DNA from: a virus
DNA length: 64,000 bases
Reading direction: 5' to 3' (one strand)
Virus record (IMG/VR): IMGVR_UViG_3300046804_005146
Location: 17,509-81,508 of that record
Below, one piece after another: positions 1 to 32,713 of the stretch; the first letter of the stretch is position 1; every line of letters starts with the position of its first letter. The notes beneath the pieces are model-generated. The model did no database searches, had not been told where the DNA came from, and saw only the letters and a program-made list of their open reading frames with translations. A program made the translations under genes and the position numbers.

Positions 1-319
1 ATCTTAATATATCAGAACGTTGACCAAAGTTTTTGCAACTTAAAAATAAATTCTTGTTATTGAAGTCAATTGTTTCAACCTCTTTATCAGTCCATAATCT
101 GTATTCGTAATCTGGGTTAGCAGATTTAACTGAATCCATATACTTTTTTAAATTACTGTCCGGCTCACTACCCAACCAAATTTGGTGAATTATTTTAGGT
201 ATCACTTTAGCACCTGACGTTTGTCTATTATTAAAAAGGTATTCAAGTAATTGCCATTTTTCCGGTAAATTTTTATCTCTATAACTAGAGCTTCTAGCCA
301 TTAATTCATTAAATTTCAT
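1..319 (-). CDS. GT32/OCH1-like glycosyltransferase, truncated at window edge
   Basis: Read manually from ATG 319 (ATGA overlap with upstream stop): IPKIIHQIWLG...NPDYEYRLWTD...FGQRSDILR, the typical GT32 N-terminus; not in the ORF track. Confidence 0.8.
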   Translation of the reverse strand, partial: MKFNELMARSSSYRDKNLPEKWQLLEYLFNNRQTSGAKVIPKIIHQIWLGSEPDSNLKKYMDSVKSANPDYEYRLWTDKEVETIDFNNKNLFLSCKNFGQRSDILR

Positions 320-1080
320 AGTATAAATTTCTCCACATTTGGTAAATTGATATAAAGATCACTATCATCTCTGTCTGGTTTAAGCTTCCACATGCCACCT
401 TCTTTAGTAAAAGGCATAATAATTCTTTTATGATTTCCTAAAAATGCAGCCCACCAAGAAAATGATGATTGTGATGTTGCTATATTTTCACTACAAAGCA
501 GTGTCGTAAAATCTACCATACCTCTTTTATCACTGTGATGTTCAAATTTATCTACATACCCTTCAGTATTTAAAGTGCACCCATCACTAATTAATCTTCT
601 AACTGTTTCGCAGTTAGAGTTATCTGTTACTATAATAATGTCTTTAAATCCAGAGCTATCTATCATTTTTCTATAAAAATCGTAACCTAAAAATTTACCT
701 ATTTCTATATAATCTGTCTCTCTAACATGTACCACTAATTTATCTTTATTTGTTACAATTGGTTGTATGTTAAAAAAATACTTTAAACTTTGTTGGTGAA
801 AATAATAATATAATGTTTTCTGTACAAAAGAGTCAACGATAATATCTCTATCAGTTAACAGTAACTCATCATAGTTTACGTGATTATTACCGTAACTACG
901 CGTATGAATAGGGTTAACCGGTTTTACAGCTTCATTCATACTACCTGTAACATTAAAGTTAGGTAACGGTGGTGTGTATAATTTACATCCTTTGTCTTTT
1001 GCCAAACAGTATCCAAAGGCAAATTGAAATAATCTATTACCCATTCTACCCCAATCATCATATTGTACGAAAACACTCAC
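316..1080 (-). CDS. GT11 alpha-1,2-fucosyltransferase-like protein
   Basis: GRMGNRLFQFA, HVRETDY and SSFSWWAAFL motifs; probable GTG start at 1080 overlapping the upstream TGA. Confidence 0.8.
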   Translation of the reverse strand: MSVFVQYDDWGRMGNRLFQFAFGYCLAKDKGCKLYTPPLPNFNVTGSMNEAVKPVNPIHTRSYGNNHVNYDELLLTDRDIIVDSFVQKTLYYYFHQQSLKYFFNIQPIVTNKDKLVVHVRETDYIEIGKFLGYDFYRKMIDSSGFKDIIIVTDNSNCETVRRLISDGCTLNTEGYVDKFEHHSDKRGMVDFTTLLCSENIATSQSSFSWWAAFLGNHKRIIMPFTKEGGMWKLKPDRDDSDLYINLPNVEKFIL

Positions 1081-1919
1081 CAGTAACATCCTCCTTCCAC
1101 TAAATCTTTCTTTTCAGGTATTTCATGTTTCATAGGCTCTGTCCAATGTTCATTGAATAGTGGTTGAAATTCTTTTATCTCTTTCCATCTTTGACCTTTT
1201 ATACCAAAAAGTATTTGAGTAGCTCCACCTAAATGTATACCGGCTTTACCTAATCGTTTGCATTCAGCTGCTAATAAAAACGATGTGTAGCCTGTGCCTA
1301 TAATAGCTACATCAAATGTTTCTTTACGTATAGCTTCTATATAAAATTTATACACTTCATCAGAAGTTTTATATTTGTTTGTAGATGTAATTTTTAAAGC
1401 AAACGGATATTTTAAAACTTTTAAAGTGAAATTAGGTATTATTTTTCCTTTCCAAATTCTTTCTAAATTAGAAAAGTTTTGACGAATAGAGTCTCCGAAA
1501 GGACTTATAACCAACACTACTTTATTTTCTAGATATTTAGTCCACGGTTTTTCAAAAAAATATGGTTCTAAATGTTGTAGCTGCGTAAAATATGTATTTT
1601 TAGAGCAATATTTTTCAAAAACAAATTTTTCAAAATCTGGAATTACTCTATTCCAAATAGGTAATAAATCTGCTATAGATAGAGCGTTTTTCATATCTGC
1701 AGCAAACTGTTTAGTTGTTTCCGGTGTATAAGGATACAACCCAGCAATATCTTCTACTTCATGCTGTAAATGAGGTAAAAAATTATTTGCAGAGTTTAAT
1801 AAATGATCGCAATATAACAGATTCAACTCTGTTACACCTATTTTACCTGCGCATAATGGTTTATTGTTCTTTAAATAATGAGAGATAAAATTGTTTCCAT
1901 CAACAACCATTGTTCTCAT
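1077..1919 (-). CDS. Putative glycan-modifying protein (GT-D fold-like)
   Basis: C-terminal FDVAIIGTG...GKAGIHLGGATQILFGIKGQRW resembles GT-D-like proteins; inside the GT operon. Confidence 0.5.
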   Translation of the reverse strand: MRTMVVDGNNFISHYLKNNKPLCAGKIGVTELNLLYCDHLLNSANNFLPHLQHEVEDIAGLYPYTPETTKQFAADMKNALSIADLLPIWNRVIPDFEKFVFEKYCSKNTYFTQLQHLEPYFFEKPWTKYLENKVVLVISPFGDSIRQNFSNLERIWKGKIIPNFTLKVLKYPFALKITSTNKYKTSDEVYKFYIEAIRKETFDVAIIGTGYTSFLLAAECKRLGKAGIHLGGATQILFGIKGQRWKEIKEFQPLFNEHWTEPMKHEIPEKKDLVEGGCYW

Positions 1920-2685
1920 ATATAATGTATGTCTGTGTATTACTCCACCATACCTTATCTCCCAACAAAGCTTTAATATCCATAGTGCTTCTATTTTCTT
2001 GCACTTTTAACCAGCGTTCATGTAATCCTTCATAGCCTTGATAATACACTTCTTTAAAAATTACATCTTCCTCGTAATAGTAAGCATAATGTTTGAATCT
2101 TTGAGGTAATAACAGCCCTGGTCCGTTTTTACCTTTTAACGTAGGTGGTTCATGTTTTTCAAATTCTTCACCAAACCATGCCCACAATCTCCTATAAGGT
2201 ACACGTCTACCTTCACCCCATTCACCTATGACTTTTTGATTTGGACCGACATAATAGTCGCATAAAAAGCACCCCGTCTTACCTTCTTTTTGAATTAACA
2301 GTTGTTCTGCCGCATCCAAATCTTTTGCATCCCACTGTTCATCAACGTCAATCTGCCAGAGAAAACATTTATCTGTTATGCGTTTAATTTCTGATATAGC
2401 TGCGTTAACTTGTTGGTCTTTACTATCCCAAGGTCTATCTACAGGTCTCAATACTCTAATTTTAGCATTTACATACTTATCTAAAAACTCGGTAGTGCCG
2501 TCTACAGAGCAGAAATTAGAATGAAATATGTCAGGTATAGGTTTACACCAATTGGTTGATCCTCCTGGGTTAGCCACTCCTTCAACTATGATCCAATGAT
2601 CAAAATTTTTGATCATATTTTCATAAAAGTTGTTGTGTAGTAAATGTTTAAAGCCGTTTAATACTATGGTGAATGCAATTCTCAT
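1900..2685 (-). CDS. Glycosyltransferase (GT-A/GT2-like)
   Basis: WIIVEG, SVDGTTEFL and LWQIDVDEQW (DxD) motifs. Confidence 0.65.
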   Translation of the reverse strand: MRIAFTIVLNGFKHLLHNNFYENMIKNFDHWIIVEGVANPGGSTNWCKPIPDIFHSNFCSVDGTTEFLDKYVNAKIRVLRPVDRPWDSKDQQVNAAISEIKRITDKCFLWQIDVDEQWDAKDLDAAEQLLIQKEGKTGCFLCDYYVGPNQKVIGEWGEGRRVPYRRLWAWFGEEFEKHEPPTLKGKNGPGLLLPQRFKHYAYYYEEDVIFKEVYYQGYEGLHERWLKVQENRSTMDIKALLGDKVWWSNTQTYIIYENNGC

Positions 2686-3377
2686 TTAATTATCCAGTTT
2701 GATTTGAAGGTTGGTGTTGGGTGATTTTCTTTCTTTAATAATATCTTTTTATTAGGTATATTCAACTGTTCGACAAAATTAGCCATAGCACTATCTACTA
2801 ATGCAATACAATTAGCTTTTTCAATAATTTTACGCCAATAAAAAATACTGTGTTTATCATTAATTTCTATAATTTGATGTTTACTTTCAAATTTAACATT
2901 TAATTGTCCTCTAGAATGTTTAATACCGACAAGATCATATTTTTCTTGTTTAACATACAAATCATAAACTTCATTTTCTTTTTCTATATTTCTATTGTAA
3001 GTTAATGACCATTTTTTATCAAAAGGTACTTTAGCTTTTCTATATTTAAATTCATCAAATTTTTCAGGTCCAAATCCATCGCCTTCTTTTACATACTCAT
3101 CTGTAACCATGCTACCAGGAAATGTTGCAGCTAAATCAAAAATAGCATCAGGTTTGTAATTAATTAAAGTGCCTTTAGCTTGTGGTACACAATTGTAAAC
3201 ATCATCTGTTACCGGTAAAAAACTAACATAAGGTGCAGCTTCAGTAAACATACTAACATACTGATGAAATATAGGCCAAATTACCTTTACACCTAACTCG
3301 TTATAATAACTTGCTATAGGTAAGCATATTATTAAATCTCCAAGTTTACCAGGTTGGATTATACCTACTGTTTTCAT
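2682..3377 (-). CDS. Glycosyltransferase (GT9-like)
   Basis: N-terminal GKLGDLIICLP and C-terminal VDSAMANF resemble GT9 motifs. Confidence 0.55.
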   Translation of the reverse strand: MKTVGIIQPGKLGDLIICLPIASYYNELGVKVIWPIFHQYVSMFTEAAPYVSFLPVTDDVYNCVPQAKGTLINYKPDAIFDLAATFPGSMVTDEYVKEGDGFGPEKFDEFKYRKAKVPFDKKWSLTYNRNIEKENEVYDLYVKQEKYDLVGIKHSRGQLNVKFESKHQIIEINDKHSIFYWRKIIEKANCIALVDSAMANFVEQLNIPNKKILLKKENHPTPTFKSNWIIK

Positions 3378-3970
3378 ATTTTAATAGACGATTTATAAAC
3401 TCCGGTGTATACTCCTTCTTGAATTGCAGGTCTAGTGTAACAAGATCTTAACCCTTCTTTTTCAATCATTTCATTTAAAAAGTGATCTGGTGTTTTTGGA
3501 TTAATACTCCAATGCTTTAATATTTTTCTAACCGCGTCTAAAGTTACCATATAGCAGTGAGCACAACGTGTTCTATAATCAGGGTGATAATAAACATGTT
3601 TACCTTCTATATTTTCATATGGTTCTATTTCACAACAAGTACCATGAAACATAATATCTCCTTTTAACCCTCTAAACTCCTTTAAAAAAATCTCTTCATA
3701 TTTCCTATATTCTTTCCATAACACTACATCATCTTCAAATATAGTAGCTATTTCTACATTGTTCTTATCCATGTGTTCAAAAACGTATTTGTGCTTAAGA
3801 TACAAAGAGTATTCTCTAATATTAATAAATCTATGTTGCTCAGGTAGTTCGATGTGTTCTGGTAAATACCCGGTAACCCAAATGGGATCAATATTTAGAA
3901 GTTTGAAACAGTGATCTAAATATTTTTTACGTTGAGTTAGTGGTGTGTGATGTAAAACGTAGTAATTCAA
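3374..3970 (-). CDS. GT25 family glycosyltransferase
   Basis: SLYLKH, IFEDDV and AHCYMVT motifs. Confidence 0.7.
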   Translation of the reverse strand: MNYYVLHHTPLTQRKKYLDHCFKLLNIDPIWVTGYLPEHIELPEQHRFINIREYSLYLKHKYVFEHMDKNNVEIATIFEDDVVLWKEYRKYEEIFLKEFRGLKGDIMFHGTCCEIEPYENIEGKHVYYHPDYRTRCAHCYMVTLDAVRKILKHWSINPKTPDHFLNEMIEKEGLRSCYTRPAIQEGVYTGVYKSSIKI

Positions 3971-4716
3971 ATTGCACCTCCTTGGGTGTCAACTTTACTC
4001 CAGTCAGGAGTAACACCGGTACGTATACTAACAATCTTAACATCGTTAATTCTTTCTTGAACTAAATCGTACCATAATTTATCGCTTATTTTATTAGTAT
4101 CAGCTATTGCCATTCTATCTGCTACCCCGTCTTTTTTATCTTTACCTAGTACCCAATGACGGTGTTCTATCATAATATCACCACGATACTTAAGTCTACC
4201 TACTGATGAGAACACTTGATGTAACCATTGATCGACCCAGTTAATTTTAAACTCTTCTCTCATGAACTTACCGTCCATTATATTTGCATACTCTCTATGA
4301 CAGAAAAAATTAACGGCTAATTTTTCGCCATGATATCCATCGTTACAATGTATTCCTAAAATTTTATCATCTGGTGCATTTTTAAATTCTGTTAATAGCA
4401 TTTCATCCCAATTAGGTGTCTTGAATACCATATCATCACCTATCATTGAAATAATTTCTTCATTAGACGCAGCTACACATTCATTCCACATTTTACCGAG
4501 ACCTATAAATTTACCTTCATTGTGAATGTTAACTATTTTAACGCAAGGTATAGCATTAGCTACCTTTGTAATGATTGGTAATGTGGGATCATCGTCATCC
4601 ACACCAAAATAGATATTAACGTTATTAATATCTTTAACAGTGGTTAAAATAGACATTAACATTGTTAAACGTCTGTTCATTCGTTCACGAGATGGTACTA
4701 ATATTGCAATTTTCAT
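3967..4716 (-). CDS. GT2-like glycosyltransferase
   Basis: IAILVPSRER, GVDDDD, IGDDMVF and IEHRHW motifs. Confidence 0.7.
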   Translation of the reverse strand: MKIAILVPSRERMNRRLTMLMSILTTVKDINNVNIYFGVDDDDPTLPIITKVANAIPCVKIVNIHNEGKFIGLGKMWNECVAASNEEIISMIGDDMVFKTPNWDEMLLTEFKNAPDDKILGIHCNDGYHGEKLAVNFFCHREYANIMDGKFMREEFKINWVDQWLHQVFSSVGRLKYRGDIMIEHRHWVLGKDKKDGVADRMAIADTNKISDKLWYDLVQERINDVKIVSIRTGVTPDWSKVDTQGGAI

Positions 4717-5978
4717 TCTGGATATCCTTTGTCAAATTCATCAAAAACCTGACCGACAAACTCACCGTCAGGTAAAGCCACGTGAGGCGGGAAAGGTTTC
4801 TTTTCTATATATGTGCAGTGCACTTGAGCTGCGTTTTTAATCAACGGGTATACTCTATCTGCTAAAAAGAACTGATCGCACGAATATTTGTCATATTGAT
4901 TCCAATTAGCAATCATACCCCGTATATTGTTTATATATCCTGGAGTACCTCCCCACAAACCACCTTGAATTGGAAATACGTGATTCTTATGATCTCTCAT
5001 AATATGGAAGGGTTGCTTTGAATCAATCCAATCAGTTACTGCCACTGCTTCTTTTCTATTAAATCTTGAGTCAGCATCTCTTATACAAAAACGTTTAACT
5101 GATAAATCGTCATTTACCCAGAAACGCCAGTACATACCTTCAAATGAGCCTAAACCACCTGGAGTTTGATAAACTTGGCAACCTAAACCATGTAGTTTTT
5201 TAGCAAACTCCATATCTATTGTCTTGTCAATATAGAATCTTAATTTCCACCCAGGGTAAACAGATTTTGCTAATTCAATATTTTTTAAAGCACCGTAACG
5301 ATATTTTTCTTTATTACCCCATAGACTTATTGAGATGATATTTGAACCGTTTAAGCTATATAAATATGCAAAGTCTTTTAATGTTTTAACATAATGATAC
5401 GAAACAGGTTCATTATACTCATCGTTATATACTGTATAGTTATGAGGATGTATACCTTCTAAATGATCAAATTTTATTTTCAATCTTCTCATTACAGACC
5501 CAAAAGTAACGTCACCGTAACCTGTTCTCTCTAGAGGTATTTCAGGTAAAGATGTAATTAAATTTCTACTTATACAATAACCAGCTCCACCAGAACAATA
5601 TTCAAAATCTTGACCCATTGCAGTGTATACTGGATTCAATGGGTCACTTTTTTTGTTTAAGACGTATCCCCAAACTCTATTAGGGTCAACGATTCTAAGC
5701 TTTTTCTTTAAATTTTCTGTAAAAATAAAAGTATCATTATCACAAAAACAGAACCAGTCATATTGTAAATGTTTGTAATTCTTAATTACATAATTGATAC
5801 CAAAAATTTGCTTCTCTTCATTACTTGCATATGTATCGTTATCTGTACATTTTAGTTTGTAATCACCCTCTTCATCAGTTAGATAAAGATACTCTTGACC
5901 TTTCAACCAAGTGTTTAGTTGATTATAATCCCTTTCAGGTTGATGTTTTGTTGTAAGTATTAAATACAGTACTTTCAT
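4713..5978 (-). CDS. Two-domain glycosyltransferase: Fringe/GT31-like N-terminal domain plus a second GT-A-like domain
   Basis: WFCFCDNDTF, YCSGGAGYCIS, DVTFG, VSYHY (GT31); then ISISLWG, IRDADSR, HIMRDH, DQFFL. Confidence 0.7.
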   Translation of the reverse strand: MKVLYLILTTKHQPERDYNQLNTWLKGQEYLYLTDEEGDYKLKCTDNDTYASNEEKQIFGINYVIKNYKHLQYDWFCFCDNDTFIFTENLKKKLRIVDPNRVWGYVLNKKSDPLNPVYTAMGQDFEYCSGGAGYCISRNLITSLPEIPLERTGYGDVTFGSVMRRLKIKFDHLEGIHPHNYTVYNDEYNEPVSYHYVKTLKDFAYLYSLNGSNIISISLWGNKEKYRYGALKNIELAKSVYPGWKLRFYIDKTIDMEFAKKLHGLGCQVYQTPGGLGSFEGMYWRFWVNDDLSVKRFCIRDADSRFNRKEAVAVTDWIDSKQPFHIMRDHKNHVFPIQGGLWGGTPGYINNIRGMIANWNQYDKYSCDQFFLADRVYPLIKNAAQVHCTYIEKKPFPPHVALPDGEFVGQVFDEFDKGYPE

Positions 5979-6801
5979 TTTTCAATTTTTTAATGATTTG
6001 AATTACTTCTTCTTTACCAACAAAAGGAGGCTGATTAGGGTAATGGCCGTGTTTACGTAAGTAAATTTCTCTACCACCATACACGTTTTTAGCCCACTGT
6101 TCGGATTTATTTGCAATGGAAGAGTTATCTATAGCTCCCGGTGCTTCAGTTAAATACTCTGTGCTATCAGCTAAATCAGCAAACCACCAAAATGGTGGGT
6201 GGTAACCTGCTTTGATAATACGGTATGTATGGTCTACATGCTCCCATGCGTTATAAAATTCTTCATCAATATAACCTACCTTTTCTAAAACTTCTCTTGT
6301 AAAAAAAGAAAACATAGCTACTGTATGCTCATATAGTGCAATCTTCAAATCTTTACTATATTCTATAACAATTTTTGGATTAGGTTCACTGTGTTGATCT
6401 AATAAATGTCTGTTATGTAAATCAAAATTTTGAATAGTTTGTTTTCTATTAAAAGGAGAGCCAGGGCCGTAATTAAAGTGATGTATACCTGATAATTTAA
6501 ATGCTTTAATATACTTGTCGAATATTTCTCCGTTTTTAATAAGCATATCATCTTCAATAATAAAGATGTAATCGCAATCTTTATCATAAAGATATTTCAT
6601 GGCTTTATTTTTAGATTTACCTACCCCTAAATTTTTAGGATTATCTAACCAAACACCAAAAGATAAATCAAAATCGTTGATAGGGGATCCGTCATTTACA
6701 ACTACCAATTCATTAATTTTGCTGTATGGAATCGTGTTTAAAAGGTTGCGTAAGTAATCGGGTCTATTACAAGTAATGATGCCTACACCTATTTTAGCCA
6801 T
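5935..6801 (-). CDS. GT2 family glycosyltransferase
   Basis: IITCNRP, VVNDGS, IEDDM and VGYIDEEF...EHVDHTYR motifs. Confidence 0.8.
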   Translation of the reverse strand: MAKIGVGIITCNRPDYLRNLLNTIPYSKINELVVVNDGSPINDFDLSFGVWLDNPKNLGVGKSKNKAMKYLYDKDCDYIFIIEDDMLIKNGEIFDKYIKAFKLSGIHHFNYGPGSPFNRKQTIQNFDLHNRHLLDQHSEPNPKIVIEYSKDLKIALYEHTVAMFSFFTREVLEKVGYIDEEFYNAWEHVDHTYRIIKAGYHPPFWWFADLADSTEYLTEAPGAIDNSSIANKSEQWAKNVYGGREIYLRKHGHYPNQPPFVGKEEVIQIIKKLKNESTVFNTYNKTST

Positions 6802-7541: not shown

Positions 7542-8311
7542 CGTTTTGTCTTTTTGACGAAATCTTTAATTTTGTTTATCTCTTTCTTATAAGCCGTTTC
7601 ATTATTTGCAATCTTTTTTTGCTCTTTTAACAACGCTTCCATAGCTGTTAAATTTTCAGGATTGAAAAGATTATCAGGTGTTGAAGGATCTCCTCCAATA
7701 GGTTGACCGTCCTTATCAACATAAAACTTTATCATTTGAATTCTCTCAAGAGGATTACCAAATATTTCAATCATACCTGGTTGATCATTTTTAGGAAAGA
7801 AAGGGTTCTTACCACTGTTTAAGGTGTATTGATTGTATATTGCTTTAAAAATACTATCGATCTCTTTAATATAAACAGGGTCTATTTCTCTTTCTTTACT
7901 CTTATCTTCTTTAATGGGCACGGGAGCTACTTTAGTAATTGGTGTAAAGAAAATAATATCTAAAAATCTCATACTTTCTCTTACGATAGGTATACATTTA
8001 TCGATAAATTCTTTATCGATATCGCTGGTTTGTTTTTCCATACACCACATAGAATAGACAAGATTGTCTAAAGGACAGCGATCAAAAATTACATTGTCAG
8101 TTCTTTTATATTTTTGCAATTCATCAACCATAAAGTTGAGAATTTTCCATTGAGAGTCTTTAGTAGCGTTTTTACTGTGTGGTAGTTTTTCTTTCTTTAA
8201 AAGTTCTCTGTATGTAGAGCTTTCTTTCTTATAAACAGGCCATTCAGCTAAAAAATCGTTTATTAACGTAGTCTTACCTTGATTTGCAGAACCGGATATT
8301 GCTAGACGCAT
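7538..8311 (-). CDS. P-loop nucleotide kinase-like ATPase (AAA_28/dNMP kinase-like)
   Basis: GSANQGKTT Walker A and FDRCPLD motif. Confidence 0.65.
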   Translation of the reverse strand: MRLAISGSANQGKTTLINDFLAEWPVYKKESSTYRELLKKEKLPHSKNATKDSQWKILNFMVDELQKYKRTDNVIFDRCPLDNLVYSMWCMEKQTSDIDKEFIDKCIPIVRESMRFLDIIFFTPITKVAPVPIKEDKSKEREIDPVYIKEIDSIFKAIYNQYTLNSGKNPFFPKNDQPGMIEIFGNPLERIQMIKFYVDKDGQPIGGDPSTPDNLFNPENLTAMEALLKEQKKIANNETAYKKEINKIKDFVKKTKR

Positions 8312-8346
8312 TTAATAATTTAGATACGTCTGATATTAAATCAATA

Positions 8347-8877
8347 TTACTGTTTCCAGGCCTGACCTACTGAACCCGGTTGCTGTTGTGCTGATTGTTG
8401 AGGCTGTTGCCCTGTTGCTTGTTGCTGAGGTTGCGCTGGTGATAAAGCACCAGCTTGAGGGTTTTGCACTTGCATTCCAGCATCTTGTTTTATTCTGTTA
8501 ACGATTTCGTTAAACGAGTTTTGTAATGAGTTTAATACGTTGCTAGGATCTACGTCTATCTCAATTCCTAGTTTATTTAAATCGTTTTGAATATCGTTCA
8601 TCACTTTTGTTACTTTATTAGCAGCAGAATTTCTATAACTCTCGACCTTTGCAATATCGGACTGTGCTTTAGCTTGACCACCTGCTGCAGCTGCTTGTTG
8701 ACTTGCTGCTACATTGCCTGTGAACCCAGCTTTAGCTGCTTTTGCACTTGCTTTAGCTCTAGCTGGTAAATTTTTAACAGTTGCTTTAGCTTGACTACCT
8801 CTTGCTTTTAAACGATCCAAAATGCCTTCGTTCACGTTATTGTAAGCCTCAAAAATCAAGTGGGAGTCCTTATTCAT
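8347..8877 (-). CDS. Hypothetical protein, probably virion-internal
   Basis: A/Q-rich; LIFE and VNE cleavage-like sites; TAAATA 6 nt upstream. Confidence 0.5.
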   Translation of the reverse strand: MNKDSHLIFEAYNNVNEGILDRLKARGSQAKATVKNLPARAKASAKAAKAGFTGNVAASQQAAAAGGQAKAQSDIAKVESYRNSAANKVTKVMNDIQNDLNKLGIEIDVDPSNVLNSLQNSFNEIVNRIKQDAGMQVQNPQAGALSPAQPQQQATGQQPQQSAQQQPGSVGQAWKQ

Positions 8878-8901
8878 ATGTATTATTTATTAAATACTTA
8901 T

Positions 8902-9873
8902 ATGCGCACCTTAAAAATATCTTCTCTCATATTATTAACGTTTCTAATGACTGGCTGCCAAATGATACCTAGTTTTAAATGGCCTTTTGGAGATAAAAAA
9001 CCAGATATTGATGTACCAGCTTTAACAGCTAAAATAGCAGCAGAAGAAGCTGCTAAAATGGCTGCTAAATTAGCTGAAGCAGATAAAAAGGTAGAAGAAG
9101 CTCGTAAAAAAATGGAGTTAGATTATGCAAAACAAAAAGAAGAGTTACAAAAGATTTACGATGAAAGAGCTCAAAAAGTAAGAGAAAATATGACTAAAGT
9201 AGGTGAATTGAATTATGGTATTTTTTATGTTTCAGAAGAAAAACGTAAACAGGATATAAACACAACTATATCATATCTACGTTCAAAAGAAATAATGAAT
9301 CGTATGGACACTTTAACTGAAAACTCTATCGATAAAGTAAAAAGAGAAGTTGAAGAAGAAAAGAAAAAATCTTTTGATGAATTATTTGCAAAATATAAAG
9401 CAAGTACAGATTTAGCTATTCATCAAAAACAAGCACTTGATGCTGCACAGGCTTTAATTGAACAAAGAGAAAAAGAAATGGCAGCTTTAAGAGAAGCTAA
9501 CAAAGTAACTATAGAAAAATTAGAAGCAGAAAAACGTCTTGAATACGCTAAACAGCAAAATGAAGCGGAAAATAAAGCTAAAGCAGCTAAAGAAGCAATG
9601 AGAATGGAAATGATAGGTTATATCATGAAAGCTCTTGTAGGTGTAGGTGTAGTATTTCTACTTCTTGCTGGTATAATGAAAAGTCTAACATTTATGGGAG
9701 CAGCTGTATTTTCGTTTGGTCTAGCTTATTTAGCAGCTACCGTTCCTTTCTGGATTATTGCTAGTGTTATGGGTGTAATAGTAATGCTTGTAATATTTAT
9801 AGATCCTAAGACCGGCAAATTTACTTGGATAAGTAAACCTACTTCAGTTGCAAAAGATAAAGCAAGTGGTTAA
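8902..9873 (+). CDS. Lipoprotein with long coiled coil and three C-terminal TM segments (spanin-like candidate)
   Basis: Signal MRTLKISSLILLTFLMTG-C; about 200 aa E/K/A coiled coil; 3 hydrophobic helices; TAAATA 5 nt upstream of ATG 8902. Confidence 0.55.
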   Translation: MRTLKISSLILLTFLMTGCQMIPSFKWPFGDKKPDIDVPALTAKIAAEEAAKMAAKLAEADKKVEEARKKMELDYAKQKEELQKIYDERAQKVRENMTKVGELNYGIFYVSEEKRKQDINTTISYLRSKEIMNRMDTLTENSIDKVKREVEEEKKKSFDELFAKYKASTDLAIHQKQALDAAQALIEQREKEMAALREANKVTIEKLEAEKRLEYAKQQNEAENKAKAAKEAMRMEMIGYIMKALVGVGVVFLLLAGIMKSLTFMGAAVFSFGLAYLAATVPFWIIASVMGVIVMLVIFIDPKTGKFTWISKPTSVAKDKASG

Positions 9874-10204
9874 TATTACCTTCTATATCATCTGCAATAT
9901 TGTGTAAATCTCTATCATTTTCTGTAAGTAATTCGGTACGTATGTAAGAAAGTAATGCACGTTTCTTATTACCTATTACCTTTGTTATATCGATATCCTC
10001 ACTATAACTCTCAACGTTTAAAACGAATTCAACCTTTAAAATATTTTTACCATACTTACCGTAATACGTTTCGATAAATTTATCGAACAGTTCACTCAAT
10101 TCGTCGTATGCTTTACCTAAAGCTTTATGTTCTGCATATGAAAATGTCTGCCAATGGAAAATTCTAATTTGATCTAAAAACGATAAAAACGGTACTAGTT
10201 TCAC
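9839..10204 (-). CDS. Dps/ferritin-like four-helix protein
   Basis: QIRIFHWQT.SYAEHKALG.AYD...DKFIE; GTG start at 10204, 5 nt after TATAAATA. Confidence 0.65.
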   Translation of the reverse strand: MKLVPFLSFLDQIRIFHWQTFSYAEHKALGKAYDELSELFDKFIETYYGKYGKNILKVEFVLNVESYSEDIDITKVIGNKKRALLSYIRTELLTENDRDLHNIADDIEGNINHLLYLLQLK

Positions 10205-10212
10205 ATAATTAT

Positions 10213-10371
10213 TTATACTAGCTCTTCTACAATGCCTAGTATTTCTGACGCGATAACTAGAGAACCAGCCCCGTAAAGGCCGCCCCATAATAAATACAAA
10301 CCAGCACCGATACGCAGAATACTCTTAATAACACTGATTCTAAAATGCCATTTAGGGTCTGGAGTATTCAT
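10213..10371 (-). CDS. 52-aa small membrane protein downstream of queE
   Basis: Read manually: MNTPDPKWHFRISVIKSILRIGAGLYLLWGGLYGAGSLVIASEILGIVEELV; starts just after the queE stop; below ORF-track cutoff. Confidence 0.65.
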   Translation of the reverse strand: MNTPDPKWHFRISVIKSILRIGAGLYLLWGGLYGAGSLVIASEILGIVEELV

Positions 10372-10372
10372 A

Positions 10373-11179
10373 TTAAACCTTTAATGCTTTATCCCAAATT
10401 TGTAGATGCAGTCTATTGGAAAACTTAAAGCCATGTTTCTTACAAATATCAGCTACAGCTGGCGCAACATTTGTAAGCTCATTACGGCTACCACACATAG
10501 GCATAATCCAAACACGATTGCGTGGGAGATTAATGTCAGGGTTATTAATAAATTTAGTAAAAACTTCATCTAGATCTGATTCTTGTTTAGCTACAAATTT
10601 AAAGCACGCATATTGTTGTACTAAAAACTTAAGGACGTCCGGCTTGAAACGTTTATCTTCCGGGTCTCCATTATTAGTTAGTTTTGGTGAAGTTGTGAAT
10701 GTACAAATCCATTTACCACTATCAACCCATTCCTGATCTGGCATAACAGTACCATTAGTTTCAAAGTCAATATAAAGATCAGGTTTGTCATTTTCTGACC
10801 TATCTACTACTTTATCAAAACTACTAAACCCCCAACGTTCGTGTATAAATTTAACAAATTCAATTAAATTTTTCTGTTGAATAAAAGGTTCACCACCAGT
10901 AATCTTAAAAATTGCACCTTCTCTTAAACGATCATGGTATCCGTTCTTTTCAAAAAATTGAGCAATCTCTTCGAAAGTCATTTTATTCTTTTTAGACCAA
11001 CTTACGTAGCTATCACACCCAAAAGGTGCATCTTCACTCTTAAAACCAATGCACGTGAGATTACACATTGATAGTCTCATGAATACTGACGGCCATCCGA
11101 TATACTCACCTTCACCTTCAAGAGTGTAAAATACAAAGTCGTCTGATAAAAACAAGGTCTTACTCGGATCAATATTCAT
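10373..11179 (-). CDS. queE: 7-carboxy-7-deazaguanine synthase (radical SAM)
   Basis: FYTLEGEG, CNLTC-x11-CDS, ITGGEP, ETNGT, TSPKL, RLHLQIW. Confidence 0.88.
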   Translation of the reverse strand: MNIDPSKTLFLSDDFVFYTLEGEGEYIGWPSVFMRLSMCNLTCIGFKSEDAPFGCDSYVSWSKKNKMTFEEIAQFFEKNGYHDRLREGAIFKITGGEPFIQQKNLIEFVKFIHERWGFSSFDKVVDRSENDKPDLYIDFETNGTVMPDQEWVDSGKWICTFTTSPKLTNNGDPEDKRFKPDVLKFLVQQYACFKFVAKQESDLDEVFTKFINNPDINLPRNRVWIMPMCGSRNELTNVAPAVADICKKHGFKFSNRLHLQIWDKALKV

Positions 11180-11235
11180 ACTTTATATTGTATGACATAC
11201 AGTGAAAAATCAAATAACAATCTAAATATTTTTAG

Positions 11236-11973
11236 ATGTCTAAAAAAACTAAGCGTAAAAAAATAAAAGAAATAGAAGAATTAGAAACAGCATTAGTTAA
11301 AAGTAAATGGGAGTATGATTTCGAAGTAACCAATAGATATACGCTAAACTATAATCAACAAAGTTTAGTTGAAACTATGCTTCGTGATGATACTTTTATG
11401 AGTATAGTAGATGGTCCAGCAGGTACAGCAAAAACTTATTTAGCTGTATATGCTGCATTAAAGTTAATATCGCAGCGTAAATTAGAAAGCATAGTTTACA
11501 TTAGAAGTGTAGTGGAAAGTGCTAGTAAGAGTATTGGATCATTACCAGGTGAAATCGATGAAAAGTTTGCACCGTGGTCTATGCCTTTAAATGATAAACT
11601 AGAAGAATTAGTTTCTACAACGGTAATTAAAAATTTACATAGTACTAATGTACTTCGTAGTATACCTGTTAATTTCGTAAGAGGATTAACGTTTAGAAAC
11701 TGTTTTGTTATAGTAGATGAAGCTCAAAATTTAACTTTAGGTGAGTTAACTACTATTCTCACTAGATTTGGCCGCAATACTAAATACGTAATAGCCGGTG
11801 ATACTTCTCAAAGTGACATTGGTAAAAATAGCGGATTTCCTTCTATATGTAATAAATTTGCTGGAGTTGAATGTGAACAAAAAGGTATATTCAACTTTAA
11901 GTTTACCGAAGACGATATAGTTAGAAGTGAGATATTACGTTTTATTGTCAGTAGACTTCAAAAGAGCGGCTAA
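11236..11973 (+). CDS. phoH: PhoH family ATPase
   Basis: GPAGTAKT, GSLPG, RGLTF, DEAQN, GDTSQSD, DIVRS. Confidence 0.92.
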   Translation: MSKKTKRKKIKEIEELETALVKSKWEYDFEVTNRYTLNYNQQSLVETMLRDDTFMSIVDGPAGTAKTYLAVYAALKLISQRKLESIVYIRSVVESASKSIGSLPGEIDEKFAPWSMPLNDKLEELVSTTVIKNLHSTNVLRSIPVNFVRGLTFRNCFVIVDEAQNLTLGELTTILTRFGRNTKYVIAGDTSQSDIGKNSGFPSICNKFAGVECEQKGIFNFKFTEDDIVRSEILRFIVSRLQKSG

Positions 11974-12201
11974 TTCTTTTAAAGCCTCTTCAGTACTAAC
12001 ATGTCTTACGTTATTTTTAGGTAAGACGGGGTCAGGCTTTTTATTCTGTTCAATTAACTTTTGATTCATTAGTTTGTTGACGTTGTTCTCAAGCTGAACT
12101 AATTTTGGATCTCTAGTTTTTTCTTGAAAAGAAGATTTTACTTCGTGTAAATTATTTTTGGGTAAAATTTTTAAAAGCCTGACCTGTTGTTCTAAGTTCA
12201 C
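11935..12201 (-). CDS. Hypothetical protein
   Basis: 88-aa ORF overlapping the queD stop (GTGA). Confidence 0.5.
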   Translation of the reverse strand: MNLEQQVRLLKILPKNNLHEVKSSFQEKTRDPKLVQLENNVNKLMNQKLIEQNKKPDPVLPKNNVRHVSTEEALKELAALLKSTDNKT

Positions 12202-13098: not shown

Positions 13099-13755
13099 AT
13101 GAAATGTGAACGTGTGAAGCACCCGACTATTCCAACAGCTAATAGTAATCTTCCAAGATCAGAAGAAGAAAAGCAACAAATCATTGAAAATGCAACCATT
13201 GCTTATGAAGCGTTTTTAGATGCTCTATGCATTGATTGGCGTAATGATCCTAATAGTGAAGGTACGCCACGTAGAGTAGCTAAAGCTTATGTTCATGACA
13301 TTGCTTCTGGCTGTTATGATGAGCCACCTAAGATTACTTCATTTCCAGCTGACGGTTATGATGGTATGGTATTTCAGGGAGGTATTCCTGTAAAGTCACT
13401 TTGTTCACATCATCACCTTGCTTTTACTGGAGTAGCACATGTTGCTTATATTCCAAGTCTTGAAGGTAGAGTAATTGGACTTTCAAAGCTCAATAGAATT
13501 GTTGAGTTTTACGCACGTAGACCTCAGATTCAAGAAGGTCTAACAATGCAGATTCATAAGGCAATAGACGAGGTTTGTGAGAAGAACCAAGGTGTTGCAG
13601 TTATGGTGAGCGCAACTCACACTTGCGCTTGTAATAGAGGTGTTCGTCACGATGGGTGCGAGATGAACACCTCAAAACTTTCAAAAGACTTCTTAACTGA
13701 CGCAGCTGTTAGAGCTGAATTTTATCAGTTTATTTCACATTGGGCTCGTCAGTAA
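13099..13755 (+). CDS. folE: GTP cyclohydrolase I
   Basis: TPRRVAK, SLCSHHHLAF, IGLSKLNR, RRPQIQE, HTCACNRG. Confidence 0.92.
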   Translation: MKCERVKHPTIPTANSNLPRSEEEKQQIIENATIAYEAFLDALCIDWRNDPNSEGTPRRVAKAYVHDIASGCYDEPPKITSFPADGYDGMVFQGGIPVKSLCSHHHLAFTGVAHVAYIPSLEGRVIGLSKLNRIVEFYARRPQIQEGLTMQIHKAIDEVCEKNQGVAVMVSATHTCACNRGVRHDGCEMNTSKLSKDFLTDAAVRAEFYQFISHWARQ

Positions 13756-14061
13756 TGATTTTTTAATATAATGGCTGACTAATTGTTTAGAAGTGTTTAG
13801 TCTTTTAGCAATTTCTGAACAATTTAAGTCTTGATTAAAATACATATCATACATTTGTTTTATCACTTTTGGTGAAGTTTTTCTATTAACTTCTGCATAT
13901 GCGTTAGCTTTTCTAAGATGATATAAAACAGTTGAAGCTGGTATGTTCAAAGCTTTAGATATTTGAGACAAAGTTTTACCTTGTTTTTGATACATATCAA
14001 AAATTGCATTTATAGCATCCTGAGAATAAGCTTCATTTAAAAATTGTTTATATGTTTTCAT
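13735..14061 (-). CDS. Tandem 2xHTH DNA-binding protein with capsid-targeting-like N-terminus
   Basis: MKTYKQFLNE; HTHs TLSQISKALNIPASTVLYHL and NCSEIAKRLNTSKQLVSHYI. Confidence 0.7.
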   Translation of the reverse strand: MKTYKQFLNEAYSQDAINAIFDMYQKQGKTLSQISKALNIPASTVLYHLRKANAYAEVNRKTSPKVIKQMYDMYFNQDLNCSEIAKRLNTSKQLVSHYIKKSLLTSPM

Positions 14062-16463
14062 GATTTTAAAAACACAGCACGAAACATTACATTATTGAAC
14101 GAACCTTTATATATGTTCGCATAAACTATATCTAAATTAACACTAGATGTTTTAGCATAATTTACAATACCATTTATGTACAGGTTAGCTATTGGTGCAC
14201 TTTCATTGTATCGGTTTAAATTAAAACCAACAGTTTCACTTTCCATACTTTGTTGGGTAGCATCGTTTGGCTTATTTTGTTTAAAATAACCTTTATCATC
14301 TAGCTTTAAATCAAATAAGTTCTTTTGTTTATTATACACATTTGTTTTAGTTATATTTGCATTTTTAGCAGCAAACAATGTATATGTCACAAATAATAAA
14401 CCACCAGGAGCTAATAATTCTTTAGCAGCTTTTACCGGGTATAAAAACGGGTTATGTAGAACGTTAAGTCTCATTGGTGTATTCCCTATTAAAGTGCCTG
14501 GTATACCTAAATAGTCGAGATCAATTATATTAAAATTATTCGGTACGTATAATCTTTTTTTATCACCTTCAGTTTTATAAAAAAAGTGTTTATCAGGTGC
14601 ATTAATTAATTCATTTATATTAGCATCAGTGACATTTGCGTGTATTTTATTGCCGGAGTCTTTTTGAGCTTTTAATCCAAATTGTTTTGCTAATTTTAAT
14701 CCTCTTGCTTCTGCTCCATATACTTCAACGTTTTTGTTAAACGTTGATGATATACCTTTCTCAAAAGAGTATTCTTCAGGTAAACTTAATACTTTAATGG
14801 TATCAGGCATTGCATTAACGTAGCTTGAAATAGCGTCAAATTCAAACTTTCTATTTTTAAGTTTCCCTTGTATGCTACTAAATTCCACTCCAGGATCAAA
14901 AACTTCACCTTTTTCTTCAGCTTGTGTTCTCAGCTCTTTATAACGTTTTTTTAGATTTGCAATTATCTCTTCTTTTGATAGGTTATCCTTCAATCCTTGC
15001 TTTCTTATCTTCTTACCTTCGGCTGAATTTTTGAATTTTTTAAATCTACGATTCATCGTTTCAATAGCCTTACGTCCTGCTCTAGAATATTTTGTAATAC
15101 CACCATGTCTAAACATTTTTAGCCAATTGTATTCGTTTAAATTAAATGATATATTATAGTCTTTTAATTGTTGTAAGAATTTTGCAAATGGCATCTTTTT
15201 AACTCGATTCATTAGCATAGTTATTTCGTCAATATAATTGACGTTAATAATATTGTTTAATTCTCTAGATGTAAATTTGGAAGGATCTACTGGCTGAAAT
15301 TTTGGATCATTTATAGATCCTATTTTTTGCTTAGCATATAATTTAATTAAATCACTTTCCTTTTCCTGTAAATATTTTATAAATTTTTCAGTTATTTCAG
15401 AGTTATTGATAATATTGGGAGGTAATGAAACAGAATCTACACTATACACTCTGCCTGTATCTTTTGCTGGTTTTAATGTTTTTGGTGACAACTTATTACG
15501 AGGTTCATGCGGGGGTTTAGTTGGTATTTCTCCACTCTTGTAAAGTTTGTGATTTTTTAAGACAATCACTACTGTTTTTGGAGACACATGCAACGCATTA
15601 GCAATTTTTATTATTTTTACACCCTCCTGGCGCATCCTTATAATTTCATCGATTATTTTTTGTCGTTGTTGCTTACGTATATCTTTACCAAATCTAGCTA
15701 TTACAGTTGCTACTGTACTATAAGGTAAATCTATTATATCTGAAATCTCACCATTAGATTTACCTTGTTTAGCTAGATCTAAAATTTGATTACGCTTATT
15801 AAGCATTTTTGAATTAACTGTTAATTTAGCGTAATCTGGTAATGATCTTAAATAATCTGTAATAGTAGAATGGCCGATACCGACCCTTTTTCCTATTTCT
15901 GTAACACTTAAACCTTGCTGTCTCAGACGCTTAATCTCTTTTTTCTTTAACAGTGTTAATTTAGATTCACGTGCGTAGTCACTCGGGTTTAACAAACCTT
16001 TTGCAATCAACTGTTTTCTTATTCTATACACTGTACCTTCGTCAACATTTAACATTTTTGCTATTTTTGCGCCACTATACCCCTTTATAGTTAAATCACG
16101 TATTTTATTGTATCTTGAACTTATATGTTTTATACCCAGTTCATTTAAGAATCTTGATATTGCATTACTACTAAATCCTAACGCTTTACCGATTTCAGTG
16201 TAATCGTAATTTTTATTAACATAATCCAATATTTGATCTTTAAAATCACTTACTGATCGATTTGGAGATATAGTTTTGTGTGAAATTTTAAAATCGGGGT
16301 TATTTTGTAATACAATTCTTCTTATCGTTTTATTATCCAGTTTAAACTGATTACTTAGAGAATTTATACTAACTCCCGGCTGTTTAGAAGCTTGAGTCAC
16401 CTGTTGTTCTATTTCAGGTGAAACTTTAAAAACTTCAGATAAGAAAAAATTTTTAAAATTCAT
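14058..16463 (-). CDS. Six-HTH protein fused to a C-terminal SAM-methyltransferase-like domain
   Basis: Six HTH repeats in about aa 29-305; C-terminal KVLSLP, VYGAE, IIDLDYLG and LLAPGGLLFVTY. Confidence 0.6.
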   Translation of the reverse strand: MNFKNFFLSEVFKVSPEIEQQVTQASKQPGVSINSLSNQFKLDNKTIRRIVLQNNPDFKISHKTISPNRSVSDFKDQILDYVNKNYDYTEIGKALGFSSNAISRFLNELGIKHISSRYNKIRDLTIKGYSGAKIAKMLNVDEGTVYRIRKQLIAKGLLNPSDYARESKLTLLKKKEIKRLRQQGLSVTEIGKRVGIGHSTITDYLRSLPDYAKLTVNSKMLNKRNQILDLAKQGKSNGEISDIIDLPYSTVATVIARFGKDIRKQQRQKIIDEIIRMRQEGVKIIKIANALHVSPKTVVIVLKNHKLYKSGEIPTKPPHEPRNKLSPKTLKPAKDTGRVYSVDSVSLPPNIINNSEITEKFIKYLQEKESDLIKLYAKQKIGSINDPKFQPVDPSKFTSRELNNIINVNYIDEITMLMNRVKKMPFAKFLQQLKDYNISFNLNEYNWLKMFRHGGITKYSRAGRKAIETMNRRFKKFKNSAEGKKIRKQGLKDNLSKEEIIANLKKRYKELRTQAEEKGEVFDPGVEFSSIQGKLKNRKFEFDAISSYVNAMPDTIKVLSLPEEYSFEKGISSTFNKNVEVYGAEARGLKLAKQFGLKAQKDSGNKIHANVTDANINELINAPDKHFFYKTEGDKKRLYVPNNFNIIDLDYLGIPGTLIGNTPMRLNVLHNPFLYPVKAAKELLAPGGLLFVTYTLFAAKNANITKTNVYNKQKNLFDLKLDDKGYFKQNKPNDATQQSMESETVGFNLNRYNESAPIANLYINGIVNYAKTSSVNLDIVYANIYKGSFNNVMFRAVFLKS

Positions 16464-16873
16464 GAACCTAAATTGTACTCCTTTGTAACATCAATTACAC
16501 CGCCATTTTTAATAATAAAATCTTTACCAATTAAAACTTGCTGTTCATTGGTGCTTCTATCTGAAATAGAAAATGGTATATTTTTCCAATGTTTACCAGC
16601 AAATTCAATATCAAATACAACAACAGGTCTTTTTTCTACTTTACCAGCACCTATGTTTATGTTTATATAATCATGTATTTTCTTAGTTAAACCTTTACCA
16701 CCTATTGTTTTGAAATTTACTTTATCTCCATACTCTTCTAAATCTGTACCATGTAAGACATTAAAAGCCCCGTTACCGCTATCTACCTTAGCGTCAACGG
16801 GGCCGAGTTCTCTAAAGTTAACTACTTCAATAAGTCCTAATGCTCTTTCGAAAAATAATTTGAATGGTACCAC
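16460..16873 (-). CDS. Retropepsin-like aspartic protease (RimB-like, 'ATP-dependent zinc protease' family)
   Basis: AKVDSGNG catalytic motif, EKRPVV, FSISDRS, VLIGKDF; GTG 16873 is 5 nt after TAAATA. Confidence 0.75.
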   Translation of the reverse strand: MVPFKLFFERALGLIEVVNFRELGPVDAKVDSGNGAFNVLHGTDLEEYGDKVNFKTIGGKGLTKKIHDYININIGAGKVEKRPVVVFDIEFAGKHWKNIPFSISDRSTNEQQVLIGKDFIIKNGGVIDVTKEYNLGS

Positions 16874-16894
16874 CAAATTATTTATTAAAAAGCA

Positions 16895-31615: not shown

Positions 31616-32713
31616 ATGGAAAAAGACATTGACGAAATTTTAGGTGAAATAGATAAGATTAATCCGTATGCTTCCTATCTTAATGAAGGAGCATTATCTA
31701 ATGTAGATGGTTGGATTGACACAGGGTCAATGGTCTTGAACGGATTAGTTTCTGGTTCCCTCTTCGGAGGTGTACCTAAGAGTAGACTTACAATGTTTGC
31801 AGGGCCGTCTATGACTGGTAAGTCTTATATTGTTCAAAAAATTCTAGCAGCAGCTCAAAAAGACGGTTTAGTTCCTGTTATCTTTGATAGTGAAAATGCA
31901 ATTGATAAAGACGGAGCTGCTGCTCTTGGTTTAGATACTAGTAGAGTAAAATATGTTCCTACTTTTAGTATTGAAGAGTGTAGAAACACCATTTACAACT
32001 TTTTAACTAAAGCTAAAGAGAAGGGACAAACAGGTAAATTCATTATTGCAATTGATTCACTAGGTAATATGGAGAGTGAATTGCAGATCAACAGAATGGA
32101 AAAGCAGAGTACCAGTGCAGATATGGGCAGTAGAGCTAAAGCAGTTAAGTCTTTACTTAGAACTTGCACTCAGTTAGCTGCTATTACCAAGACTACTATA
32201 CTTTGCACTAATCATATCTACGAAGATCCTAGTGCAATGTTCCCGTCATTAGTAAAAGAGATGCCAGGTGGTAGAGCTGCAGTGTATTTACCATCTGTAA
32301 CAGTACAACTTGCAAGAAAGCCAATGAAAGAAGACAATCATATTGATTCTAAACTTGCAGTTGGTCAAAAAAGTTACCCCGGTGTTATTTTACGTGCATT
32401 AACTGCTAAGAATCGGTTTGTTAAACAGTATCTAGAAGGTGAGATGTATCTAAGTTTTGAAAGTGGTTTAGCTAAGTACTACGGTCTTCTAGAACTTGCA
32501 GTTGGGTTTGGTGTGTTGCAACAGTCTGGTAGTACATATACCAAAGCTGACGGTGAAAAGATCGGTCAATACGGTAGATGGAAAGATGATACTGAAATCT
32601 GGGACAAGTATATTGTACCTGGTATTGAAGATAAGATTAAAGTAGAGTGGAAATATGGTCAAAACAATAGTCAGAGAGACGAAGTGCCTGATGAGGTGGA
32701 AGAAAATGAATAA
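31616..32713 (+). CDS. uvsX: RecA-like recombinase
   Basis: DTGS, GPSMTGKS, FDSE, IDSLGN, DMGSRAK, TNH. Confidence 0.92.
   Translation: MEKDIDEILGEIDKINPYASYLNEGALSNVDGWIDTGSMVLNGLVSGSLFGGVPKSRLTMFAGPSMTGKSYIVQKILAAAQKDGLVPVIFDSENAIDKDGAAALGLDTSRVKYVPTFSIEECRNTIYNFLTKAKEKGQTGKFIIAIDSLGNMESELQINRMEKQSTSADMGSRAKAVKSLLRTCTQLAAITKTTILCTNHIYEDPSAMFPSLVKEMPGGRAAVYLPSVTVQLARKPMKEDNHIDSKLAVGQKSYPGVILRALTAKNRFVKQYLEGEMYLSFESGLAKYYGLLELAVGFGVLQQSGSTYTKADGEKIGQYGRWKDDTEIWDKYIVPGIEDKIKVEWKYGQNNSQRDEVPDEVEENE

Follow-up and report, generated by a model that had tools for sequence, protein, structure and literature searches.

A candidate head-packaged, DNA-bound methyltransferase-like protein with a T4-type leader in a distant T4-like phage

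Proteins injected together with phage DNA act before phage gene expression and decide whether the genome survives host defences. To our knowledge, few enzymatic injected proteins are known, among them T4 Alt, P1 DarB and N4 vRNAP. Here we analyzed a protein of 801 residues (P0001) that may belong with them. It is encoded in a 64,000-nucleotide stretch of viral DNA, hereafter the window (positions 17,509 to 81,508 of IMG/VR record IMGVR_UViG_3300046804_005146). Among the closest described systems, T4 Alt is a packaged enzyme, and P1 DarB, a methylase-helicase carried in the head, is described as shielding injected DNA in cis (PMC5512222). The capsid targeting sequence (CTS) of T4 is MKTYQEFIAE; residues 4 and 7 are reported to direct targeting and residues 8 and 10 to govern processing, gp21 cleaving after L/I-X-E (PMC8442874, PMC9026906). 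DpdM is described as the dPreQ1 methyltransferase of phages phiSM and VH7D (PMC10516641).

A first-pass annotation of the window had read P0001 as an open reading frame (ORF) of 801 residues with six tandem helix-turn-helix (HTH) units, a basic linker and a C-terminal domain resembling methyltransferases (MTases). The ORF, which runs on the minus strand, the six HTH units and the basic linker were all borne out (Table 1). Absent from that annotation was a short N-terminal leader similar to the T4 CTS, and with this leader the likely biology becomes that of a packaged, injected protein. We tentatively interpret P0001 as a modular, head-packaged, DNA-bound and injected MTase-like effector of a distant T4-like myovirus, and give this interpretation slightly less than an even chance.

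The leader of P0001 agrees with the T4 CTS at three of the four mapped positions (F7, L8 and E10) and has a phenylalanine at position 3. It fails a strict regular expression for the CTS and passes a relaxed one. The leader of the 108-residue protein encoded directly downstream is identical to the T4 CTS at 6 of 10 residues. The strict, T4-shaped pattern was found in 8 of 21 family proteins (P0001 and its homologs, described below), in 2 of 111 record genes, the 108-residue gene among them, and in none of 2021 cellular ORFs. The relaxed pattern is present in 11/21 family proteins versus 6/2021 cellular ORFs, and in 5/111 record genes versus 0.87 after shuffling of N-termini (maximum 4 in 500 shuffles); three of these five genes are supplied by the P0001 operon. 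Throughout the family the leader stays at the extreme N-terminus, whether an HTH array or the C-terminal-type domain comes next. It also appears to be shared between adjacent genes, as the family member and a neighbouring gene agree at 8 of 12 leader residues in locus L004, and the family member and the next gene at 7 of 12 in L005. Leader and HTH array occur together without the domain in the 108-residue protein here and in proteins of 263 and 327 residues in L006 and L011. The 108-residue protein matches phrog_2667, ‘internal head protein’ (E 1.1e-5, residues 1-89). In addition, P0001 evolves fast: against its homologs in L001 and L002 it retains 36-39% identity, compared with 82-89% for folE, and T4 internal proteins are described as likewise diverse (PMC3012670). 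Judged from these N-termini, packaging of P0001 through the leader is moderately probable.

Leaders of this kind were also seen elsewhere. A single leader of the MRNQYKIL(A/S)EKY...E type heads about ten neighbouring genes, unrelated in length, in L006, L010 and L011 (e.g. L011:3721-6734 and 7976-11989). These genes seem to form a large group whose products are targeted or processed by way of the same leader, and in these contigs MLPFKQFYTE is common to two HTH-array proteins. Three genes in a row directly after the family member in L008 (2201-4187) start with MIKLKPL(I/L)(Y/F)E or MIKLKSLISE. In the window itself, two further genes pass the CTS-like pattern: one of 142 residues at 44315-44743 (minus strand), which starts MYENRFKRFLVE and has no Pfam family, and one of 121 residues at 59338-59703 (plus strand), which starts MNGQYQNFIEE.

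The T4-like affiliation is indicated by the terminase TerL, which matches 2591 T4-superfamily records at 33-37% identity. Sheath, tube, PolB, UvsX-like, DnaB-like, clamp loader and primase-like genes are also present in the record.

Between the leader and the C-terminal domain, P0001 consists of the HTH array and the basic linker. The best stretches matched by Pfam and PHROG fall at six separate places (residues 17-51, 69-106, 126-156, 167-201, 225-257 and 263-298), with HTH_23 at 2.2e-22 and HTH_38 at 5.5e-21. A hidden Markov model (HMM) of the unit puts the six units at 18-58, 73-113, 116-155, 173-212, 222-262 and 268-308; it was built from P0001's own six units and is thus circular for P0001. 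In 10 further family proteins the same model recognizes units, numbering 1-6. Of 27 family sequences, 11 have at least one detected unit, and within the 81.5-kb record this unit type is limited to P0001 and its 108-residue neighbour. The last ~100 residues of the linker are common only to P0001 and P0002. The whole protein is basic (pI 9.83, net charge +54) and has no cysteine; all family members are basic (pI 8.9-9.8). The array would bind DNA, as its membership in HTH families suggests. Examination of tandem repeats as possible DNA targets of the array returned nothing relevant. The five HTH units of P0002, a homolog of 671 residues, are near-identical copies (QDQIDKIIELRKQG...AKQLNI...), and HTH arrays seem to grow through recent tandem duplication.

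The C-terminal domain has few relatives. When 1.84 billion representatives were searched exhaustively with phmmer, a family of 19 proteins emerged (E up to 1e-3), and a word-indexed profile search added only P0020-P0022. A scan of metagenomes yielded 11 loci, in which the neighbouring genes mostly have no Pfam family; two pattern scans of IMG/VR viral contigs gave 60 and 94 matches with no relative among them, and tblastn of residues 320-801 against 50,697 phage records gave no match. Residues 320-801 and 530-801 have no match in Pfam at E up to 10, and residues 320-801 none in PHROGs. Only chance-level rows were obtained for residues 320-540 in Pfam (TACC_C, E 0.1; Myb_DNA-bind_4, E 6.1) and for residues 515-801 together with five homologs in NCBIfam. 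Among sequences of the Protein Data Bank (PDB), phmmer with residues 320-801 and parts thereof found only GH31 (E 0.04), and the profile found only bS16 (E 0.24) and an MTase (2p8j, E 0.34). By these searches, the C-terminal domain is an undescribed, rare phage protein family.

The domain is retained in several arrangements. It stands alone in proteins of ~280-325 residues (P0006, P0009, P0011, P0013 and P0017-P0020), the stand-alone form being kept in at least 12 family proteins. Elsewhere it is C-terminal to an array of 1-6 HTH units, and P0005 has the reverse order, with the domain N-terminal to the array. We aligned 18 of the 19 proteins from the phmmer search (alignment A1); P0015 (2858 residues, with seven short stretches matching query residues 385-447) was excluded uninspected from every alignment. 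At an overall identity of 22-44%, nine positions of A1 are invariant (K534, R538, Y565, E568, I647, D648, D650, G688 and T693) and nine near-invariant (P562, L649, Y651, P732, N783, Y785, G787, R795 and K800). The motifs quoted in the first-pass annotation are all present (KVLSLP at residues 557-562, VYGAE at 581-585, IIDLDYLG at 646-653 and LLAPGGLLFVTY at 683-694), and they are beyond chance. As A1 was too diverse to yield patterns, a second alignment (A2) was built. For profile comparisons we used A3, made up of stand-alone forms and locus cuts, 13 of the ~27 family sequences in all.

Both structural neighbours and the order of conserved features point to a class I MTase fold. Families of class I S-adenosylmethionine (SAM)-dependent MTases in Pfam account for 8 of 10 ESM Atlas neighbours of the P0001 model (residues 515-801) and for 9 of 10 neighbours of the model of the stand-alone homolog P0020. 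A further lead from the Atlas was PF28273, at 16-18% of cluster members. Conserved features follow each other as in a class I enzyme: position 585, then 615, then D648-L-D-Y651, and then GG and T693. Position 585, at the presumed end of strand 2 (motif II), is E, D or N in 16 of 18 rows, and position 615, at the place of motif III, is N or D in 16 of 18, both strands being assigned by order and pattern. The consensus reported for motif IV of amine MTases is D/N-P/L-P-Y/F/H (PMC3367198); D648-L649-D650-Y651 fits three of its four places, the third being Asp and not Pro. The C-terminal domain very probably has an MTase-like fold. That it is an active SAM-dependent MTase, as its conserved residues may suggest, is a proposition we hold at just under even.

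The closest relationship by profile is to Trm1, the tRNA (guanine26-N2)-dimethyltransferase (PF02005). A motif scan of genome contigs gave 120 loci, 56 of them with full-length Trm1-like ORFs; 28 of these 56 formed alignment A4, and all 28 match PF02005. Comparison of A3 with A4 by hhalign gave a probability of 94.6% (E 6.6e-8) over 38 columns, with the aligned consensus fDIIDLDYtG.P...A...L..GGlL.VT for the P0001 family and fDVIDLDPFGSP...gglL.vTAT for Trm1. Since this first Trm1 set had been picked by motif, we repeated the comparison with a set that the Pfam model picked from Thermoproteota genomes (matches in 41 of 41; 30 loci for 41 matches), and the match persisted (90.9%, E 1.1e-6, 36 columns). 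In the same run, control sets gave 0.2% for RsmD (30/41), 4.1% for N6_N4 DNA methylases (20/20 places, from 13/26 genomes) and 27.6% for Methyltransf_11 (30 of >100 places), the last over 17 columns at an LKPGG motif; in the case of L187, L190, L217 and L231 the stated length was compatible with two frames, of which the first was used. Column shuffles of A3 (n=60) reached at most 0.7% and the reversed profile 0.3%. True MTase families compared with each other gave 31-97.5%: pairs without N6_N4 (n=3) 96-97.5% over at least 100 columns, and pairs with N6_N4 (n=3) 31-92% over 49-64 columns. The extensions obtained by hhalign at low mact carry no confidence. Thus, the earlier remark that DLDY.G recalls Trm1 rather than standard DNA MTases holds, and by profile comparison the motif IV-V block is specifically Trm1-like. 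Within the Trm1 block IDLDP(F/Y)G ... GGLL.VTATD, the proline is missing from the P0001 family and TATD reads T(Y/F).

Since the best profile match is a tRNA m2,2G methyltransferase, P0001 might act like Trm1 and methylate tRNA or rRNA of the host or the phage, the HTH array being an unrelated DNA-binding add-on. Such a role is highly improbable. The C-terminal domain of Trm1 and its conserved cysteines are absent, PF02005 has no match in six frames of the record nor in the domain and eight homologs at E up to 10, and no tRNA gene was found in the window. Moreover, the domain is repeatedly fused to HTH arrays, on one side or the other, which speaks for DNA.

Several observations weigh against the interpretation of P0001 as a packaged MTase-like effector. 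As regards the leader, position 4 of P0001 is lysine and not an aromatic residue. The relaxed pattern is failed by 10 of 21 family N-termini, most of which have aromatics followed by hydrophobic-x-Glu slightly further in. AT-rich genomes in general favour K-, N- and F-rich N-termini. The leader of P0001 agrees with those of its neighbours at 4 of 12 positions by identity, and in L003 and L008 the agreement is weak or none, so that in these two loci and in the window sharing is at the pattern level only (up to 4/12). Neither the prohead protease (PF03420) nor portal or capsid/head genes were found in the 81.5-kb record; the record (81,508 bases) is rated 39% complete by CheckV, and the processing machinery is thus out of view. 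As regards the domain, the Atlas neighbours have modest template modelling (TM) scores (0.47-0.60 over ~180-210 aligned residues). They come from models with a mean predicted local distance difference test (pLDDT) of 0.58-0.65, P0001 having a whole-protein predicted TM score (pTM) of 0.36 and pLDDT of 0.58, and P0020 0.69 and 0.65, respectively. The Trm1 match is local, limited to the 36-38 columns, and global hhalign fails. Pfam searches with eight homologs returned chance-level rows only, all from P0018, and no MTase model, TRM included, at E up to 10. The N-terminal 122 residues of the domain, where motifs I-III would be expected, gave 0.1% against each of the four MTase families tested. 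Finally, a glycine-rich motif I (E/DxGxGxG) is absent; its place is taken by S560-L-P562-x-x-Y565-x-F-E568, with no conserved glycine. The first-pass assignment of the C-terminal motifs to strands of a class I SAM-dependent MTase thus stands as far as fold likeness goes, whereas its motif I-III part found no counterpart in these profiles.

These properties of the domain raise the possibility that its MTase fold is catalytically dead. P0001 would then be a packaged or DNA-associated structural or regulatory protein, its HTH and basic regions coating or organizing DNA or regulating transcription, and its C-terminal domain doing no more than bind a ligand (for example a nucleotide, host protein or restriction enzyme; compare T4 IPI*). 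The lack of a glycine-rich motif I, of profile likeness over motifs I-III and of any MTase HMM match is what such a protein would show, and T4 internal proteins are described as non-enzymatic, basic anti-restriction proteins (PMC3012670). The proteins with leader and HTH array that lack the domain fit as well. However, ~17 invariant or near-invariant, mostly polar residues are retained at the places of motifs II, III and IV and after motif V despite the low overall identity, a pattern resembling that of an active site, and the domain is repeatedly kept on its own. We therefore consider a dead domain unlikely.

If P0001 is indeed a packaged effector, its ~10-residue leader of the T4 CTS type (hydrophobic-x-Glu at positions 8-10) would take it into the prohead core, where the prohead protease would remove the leader. 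The HTH array and the linker would tether the protein to the packaged genome, and it would therefore leave the capsid with the DNA. The C-terminal domain, a putative divergent class I (Rossmann-fold) MTase-like module nearest to Trm1 from motif IV to strand 5, would exert its enzymatic activity right at the onset of infection and would methylate an exocyclic or primary amine on cis-bound nucleic acid or on a host factor. A more specific and somewhat unlikely version is that the proteins form an undescribed phage enzyme family, leader-loaded and injected on DNA, with a Trm1-derived active site and a non-glycine cofactor pocket. They would methylate or otherwise alkylate, within seconds of infection, an amine of the incoming 7-deazaguanine genome in cis or of a host defence or transcription factor, HTH arrays (fused or alongside) serving as the DNA tether.

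The record also carries 7-deazaguanine genes. FolE, QueD and QueE were read from translations, and QueC and QueF were identified by Pfam match. QueF has two domains and lies outside the window (L245:1390-2358, minus strand). As the record encodes QueF as well as QueC, preQ1, which has a free amine, can be made. No Pfam match to TGT/DpdA (PF01702) was found in the record; an ORF of 267 residues (L245:2890-3690) has no Pfam match. A GATase-GNAT-glycosyltransferase trio adjoins queC (window 32655-33473 and 34877-36683) and may point to further hypermodification.

In a view that builds on the first-pass annotation, P0001 would be a cytoplasmic, non-packaged MTase targeted to phage DNA during replication. 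It might methylate a 7-deazaguanine base (such as the aminomethyl group of preQ1 or N2 of a modified G), a kind of target that the annotation allowed for from the position next to folE. Several features are in line with this view: the capacity to make preQ1, a motif IV close to the amine-methylating type, and the nearest family, Trm1, which according to its Pfam name methylates N2 of guanine. The modified base mdPreQ1 is reported from phage DNA (PMC10516641). The adjacency itself recurs in two relatives, L001 and L002, where the homolog adjoins folE, queD and phoH and converges on folE as here. However, a convergent gene is not co-transcribed with folE, and the adjacency is confined to these relatives, whose folE is 82-89% identical to that of the P0001 locus. 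In five longer loci (~10-17 kb) from more distant phages there is no match to the deazaguanine genes of this phage, and the validated dPreQ1 methylase DpdM is described as a DUF3109 metal-cluster protein. The deazaguanine link is therefore positional only. Together with the missing TGT/DpdA match and a conserved leader that it leaves unexplained, this makes the cytoplasmic role quite improbable.

Locations of P0001, its parts and its neighbours are summarized in Table 1. The upstream ORF of 138 residues ends in an overlap with the ATG of P0001 (ATGA), and P0001 ends in an overlap with the ATG of the downstream ORF of 108 residues; therefore, the three genes are translationally coupled. The 108-residue protein looks like a miniature of the N-terminal part of P0001, and tblastn with it found only HTH-level matches in Bacillus phages (E 9e-3). 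The match of the 138-residue protein to PF05618 (retropepsin-like ‘Zn_protease’) is borderline (E 3.1e-6; 27.6 bits against a cut-off of 27 bits), and the protein is possibly a small packaged protease. A box, AATAAATA, lies 2 nt 5' of the TTG of this ORF; we did not use it as evidence for late timing. A sigma-70 scan was uninformative (38 sites versus 47.4 expected), and no claim about early or late promoters was drawn from it.

Table 1. Features of the P0001 locus, in window positions
Feature	Residues	Position	Strand	Basis or remark
folE (GTP cyclohydrolase I), convergent neighbour		13099..13755	+	read from translation
108-residue gene, downstream, coupled		13735..14061	-	leader MKTYKQFLNE and two HTH units (HTH Pfam matches; unit HMM)
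801-residue ORF (P0001)		14058..16463	-	stop codon included; homologs found by sequence search
Conserved domain, ~276 residues, class I methyltransferase-fold-like	526-801	14061..14888	-	homolog alignment, ESM Atlas neighbours
Trm1-like motif IV to strand 5 block, IIDLDYLG ... LLAPGGLLFVTY	646-694	14382..14528	-	hhalign and shuffle control
Motif I place, KVLSLPEEYSFE	557-568	14760..14795	-	P562, Y565, E568 conserved; no glycine
Basic linker	309-525	14889..15539	-	net +18, pI 9.87
Six helix-turn-helix units	18-308	15540..16412	-	Pfam, PHROG, unit HMM
Leader MNFKNFFLSE	1-10	16434..16463	-	capsid-targeting-sequence-like; F7, L8, E10
138-residue gene, upstream, coupled		16460..16876	-	leader M(V)VPFKLFFE; weak retropepsin-like / PF05618 match

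Two further gene arrangements were seen. Eight back-to-back ORFs of 198-421 residues on the minus strand (window 316-6801), upstream of a tail-fibre-like gene, look by eye like a sugar-modifying or glycosyltransferase cluster. In L004, a phage-like contig, the family member has as its head-to-head neighbour a gene of the tryptophan-halogenase family (5065-6693, minus strand; PF04820, E 3.5e-106).

If the packaged interpretation of P0001 is correct, a leader-tagged, HTH-tethered MTase-like family would be a new type of cargo in T4-like phages, and the capsid-targeting logic of T4 would reach very distant environmental relatives. P0001 would also be a candidate for early chemical protection, in cis, of a hypermodified (preQ1-type) genome. 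Clusters of genes with a shared leader in related contigs could offer a sequence-only route to listing the packaged proteome of a phage. Among the papers searched, ‘capsid targeting sequence’ never occurred together with ‘methyltransferase’, nor did ‘Trm1-like’ with ‘phage’.

By its sequence, P0001 is a member of none of the Trm1, T4 Alt and P1 DarB families, and each of the known systems shares only some of its features. With Trm1 the domain shares the likeness to the class I fold and the block I-D-L-D-(P/Y)-x-G-x-P ... A ... GG-L-L-x-V-T, in which I, D, D, G and T are invariant in both families. The differences are a motif I that reads A-T-G-I-R-G-I-R-Y-A-x-E in Trm1 and S-L-P-x-x-Y-x-F-E in the P0001 family, D-P-F in Trm1 versus D-Y in P0001 (the proline being replaced), and the near-invariant cysteines C255, C258 and C278 of A4 with the Trm1 C-terminal domain, neither of which P0001 has. 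P0001 in turn is phage-borne and has the leader and HTH arrays. The generic class I SAM-dependent MTases (Methyltransf_11/25/31) provide the nearest Atlas structures, and their L-K-P-G-G-L motif aligns with that of P0001. They differ in that P0001 has no significant sequence or profile match to them and a motif I that is not glycine-rich. DpdM is likewise encoded by phages that have 7-deazaguanine genes, and an amine is the proposed substrate of its methylation; it is described as a DUF3109 protein with CxxxCxxCC metal sites and a cysteine-rich, non-Rossmann fold, whereas P0001 has neither a cysteine nor a DUF3109 Pfam match.

The internal proteins of T4 (IPI, IPII, IPIII) and its Alt protein resemble P0001 in a different respect. 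They too have a leader of ~10 residues ending in hydrophobic-x-Glu, belong to a T4-superfamily phage, are basic, are encoded in a cluster of genes with like leaders and evolve fast. Beyond the leader, there is no sequence relation. At 91 kDa, P0001 is much larger than these proteins; it has HTH arrays as well as the MTase-like domain, and its packaging is a prediction. P1 DarB is, like P0001, a protein with an MTase domain, and it is described as a head component in P1, as is predicted here for P0001. It differs in being, as described, an adenine methylase of the EcoKI/TaqI type combined with a superfamily 2 (SF2) helicase and LPD36; in P0001 there is no helicase or N6-methylase Pfam match and no NPPY-type motif, and the N6_N4 profile scored only 4.1%. 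The mode of action of P0001 would nevertheless resemble that of packaged T4 Alt or P1 DarB. If so, P0001 would represent a second, independent invention of the DarB idea, a packaged methylase riding on the DNA, in T4-like phages.

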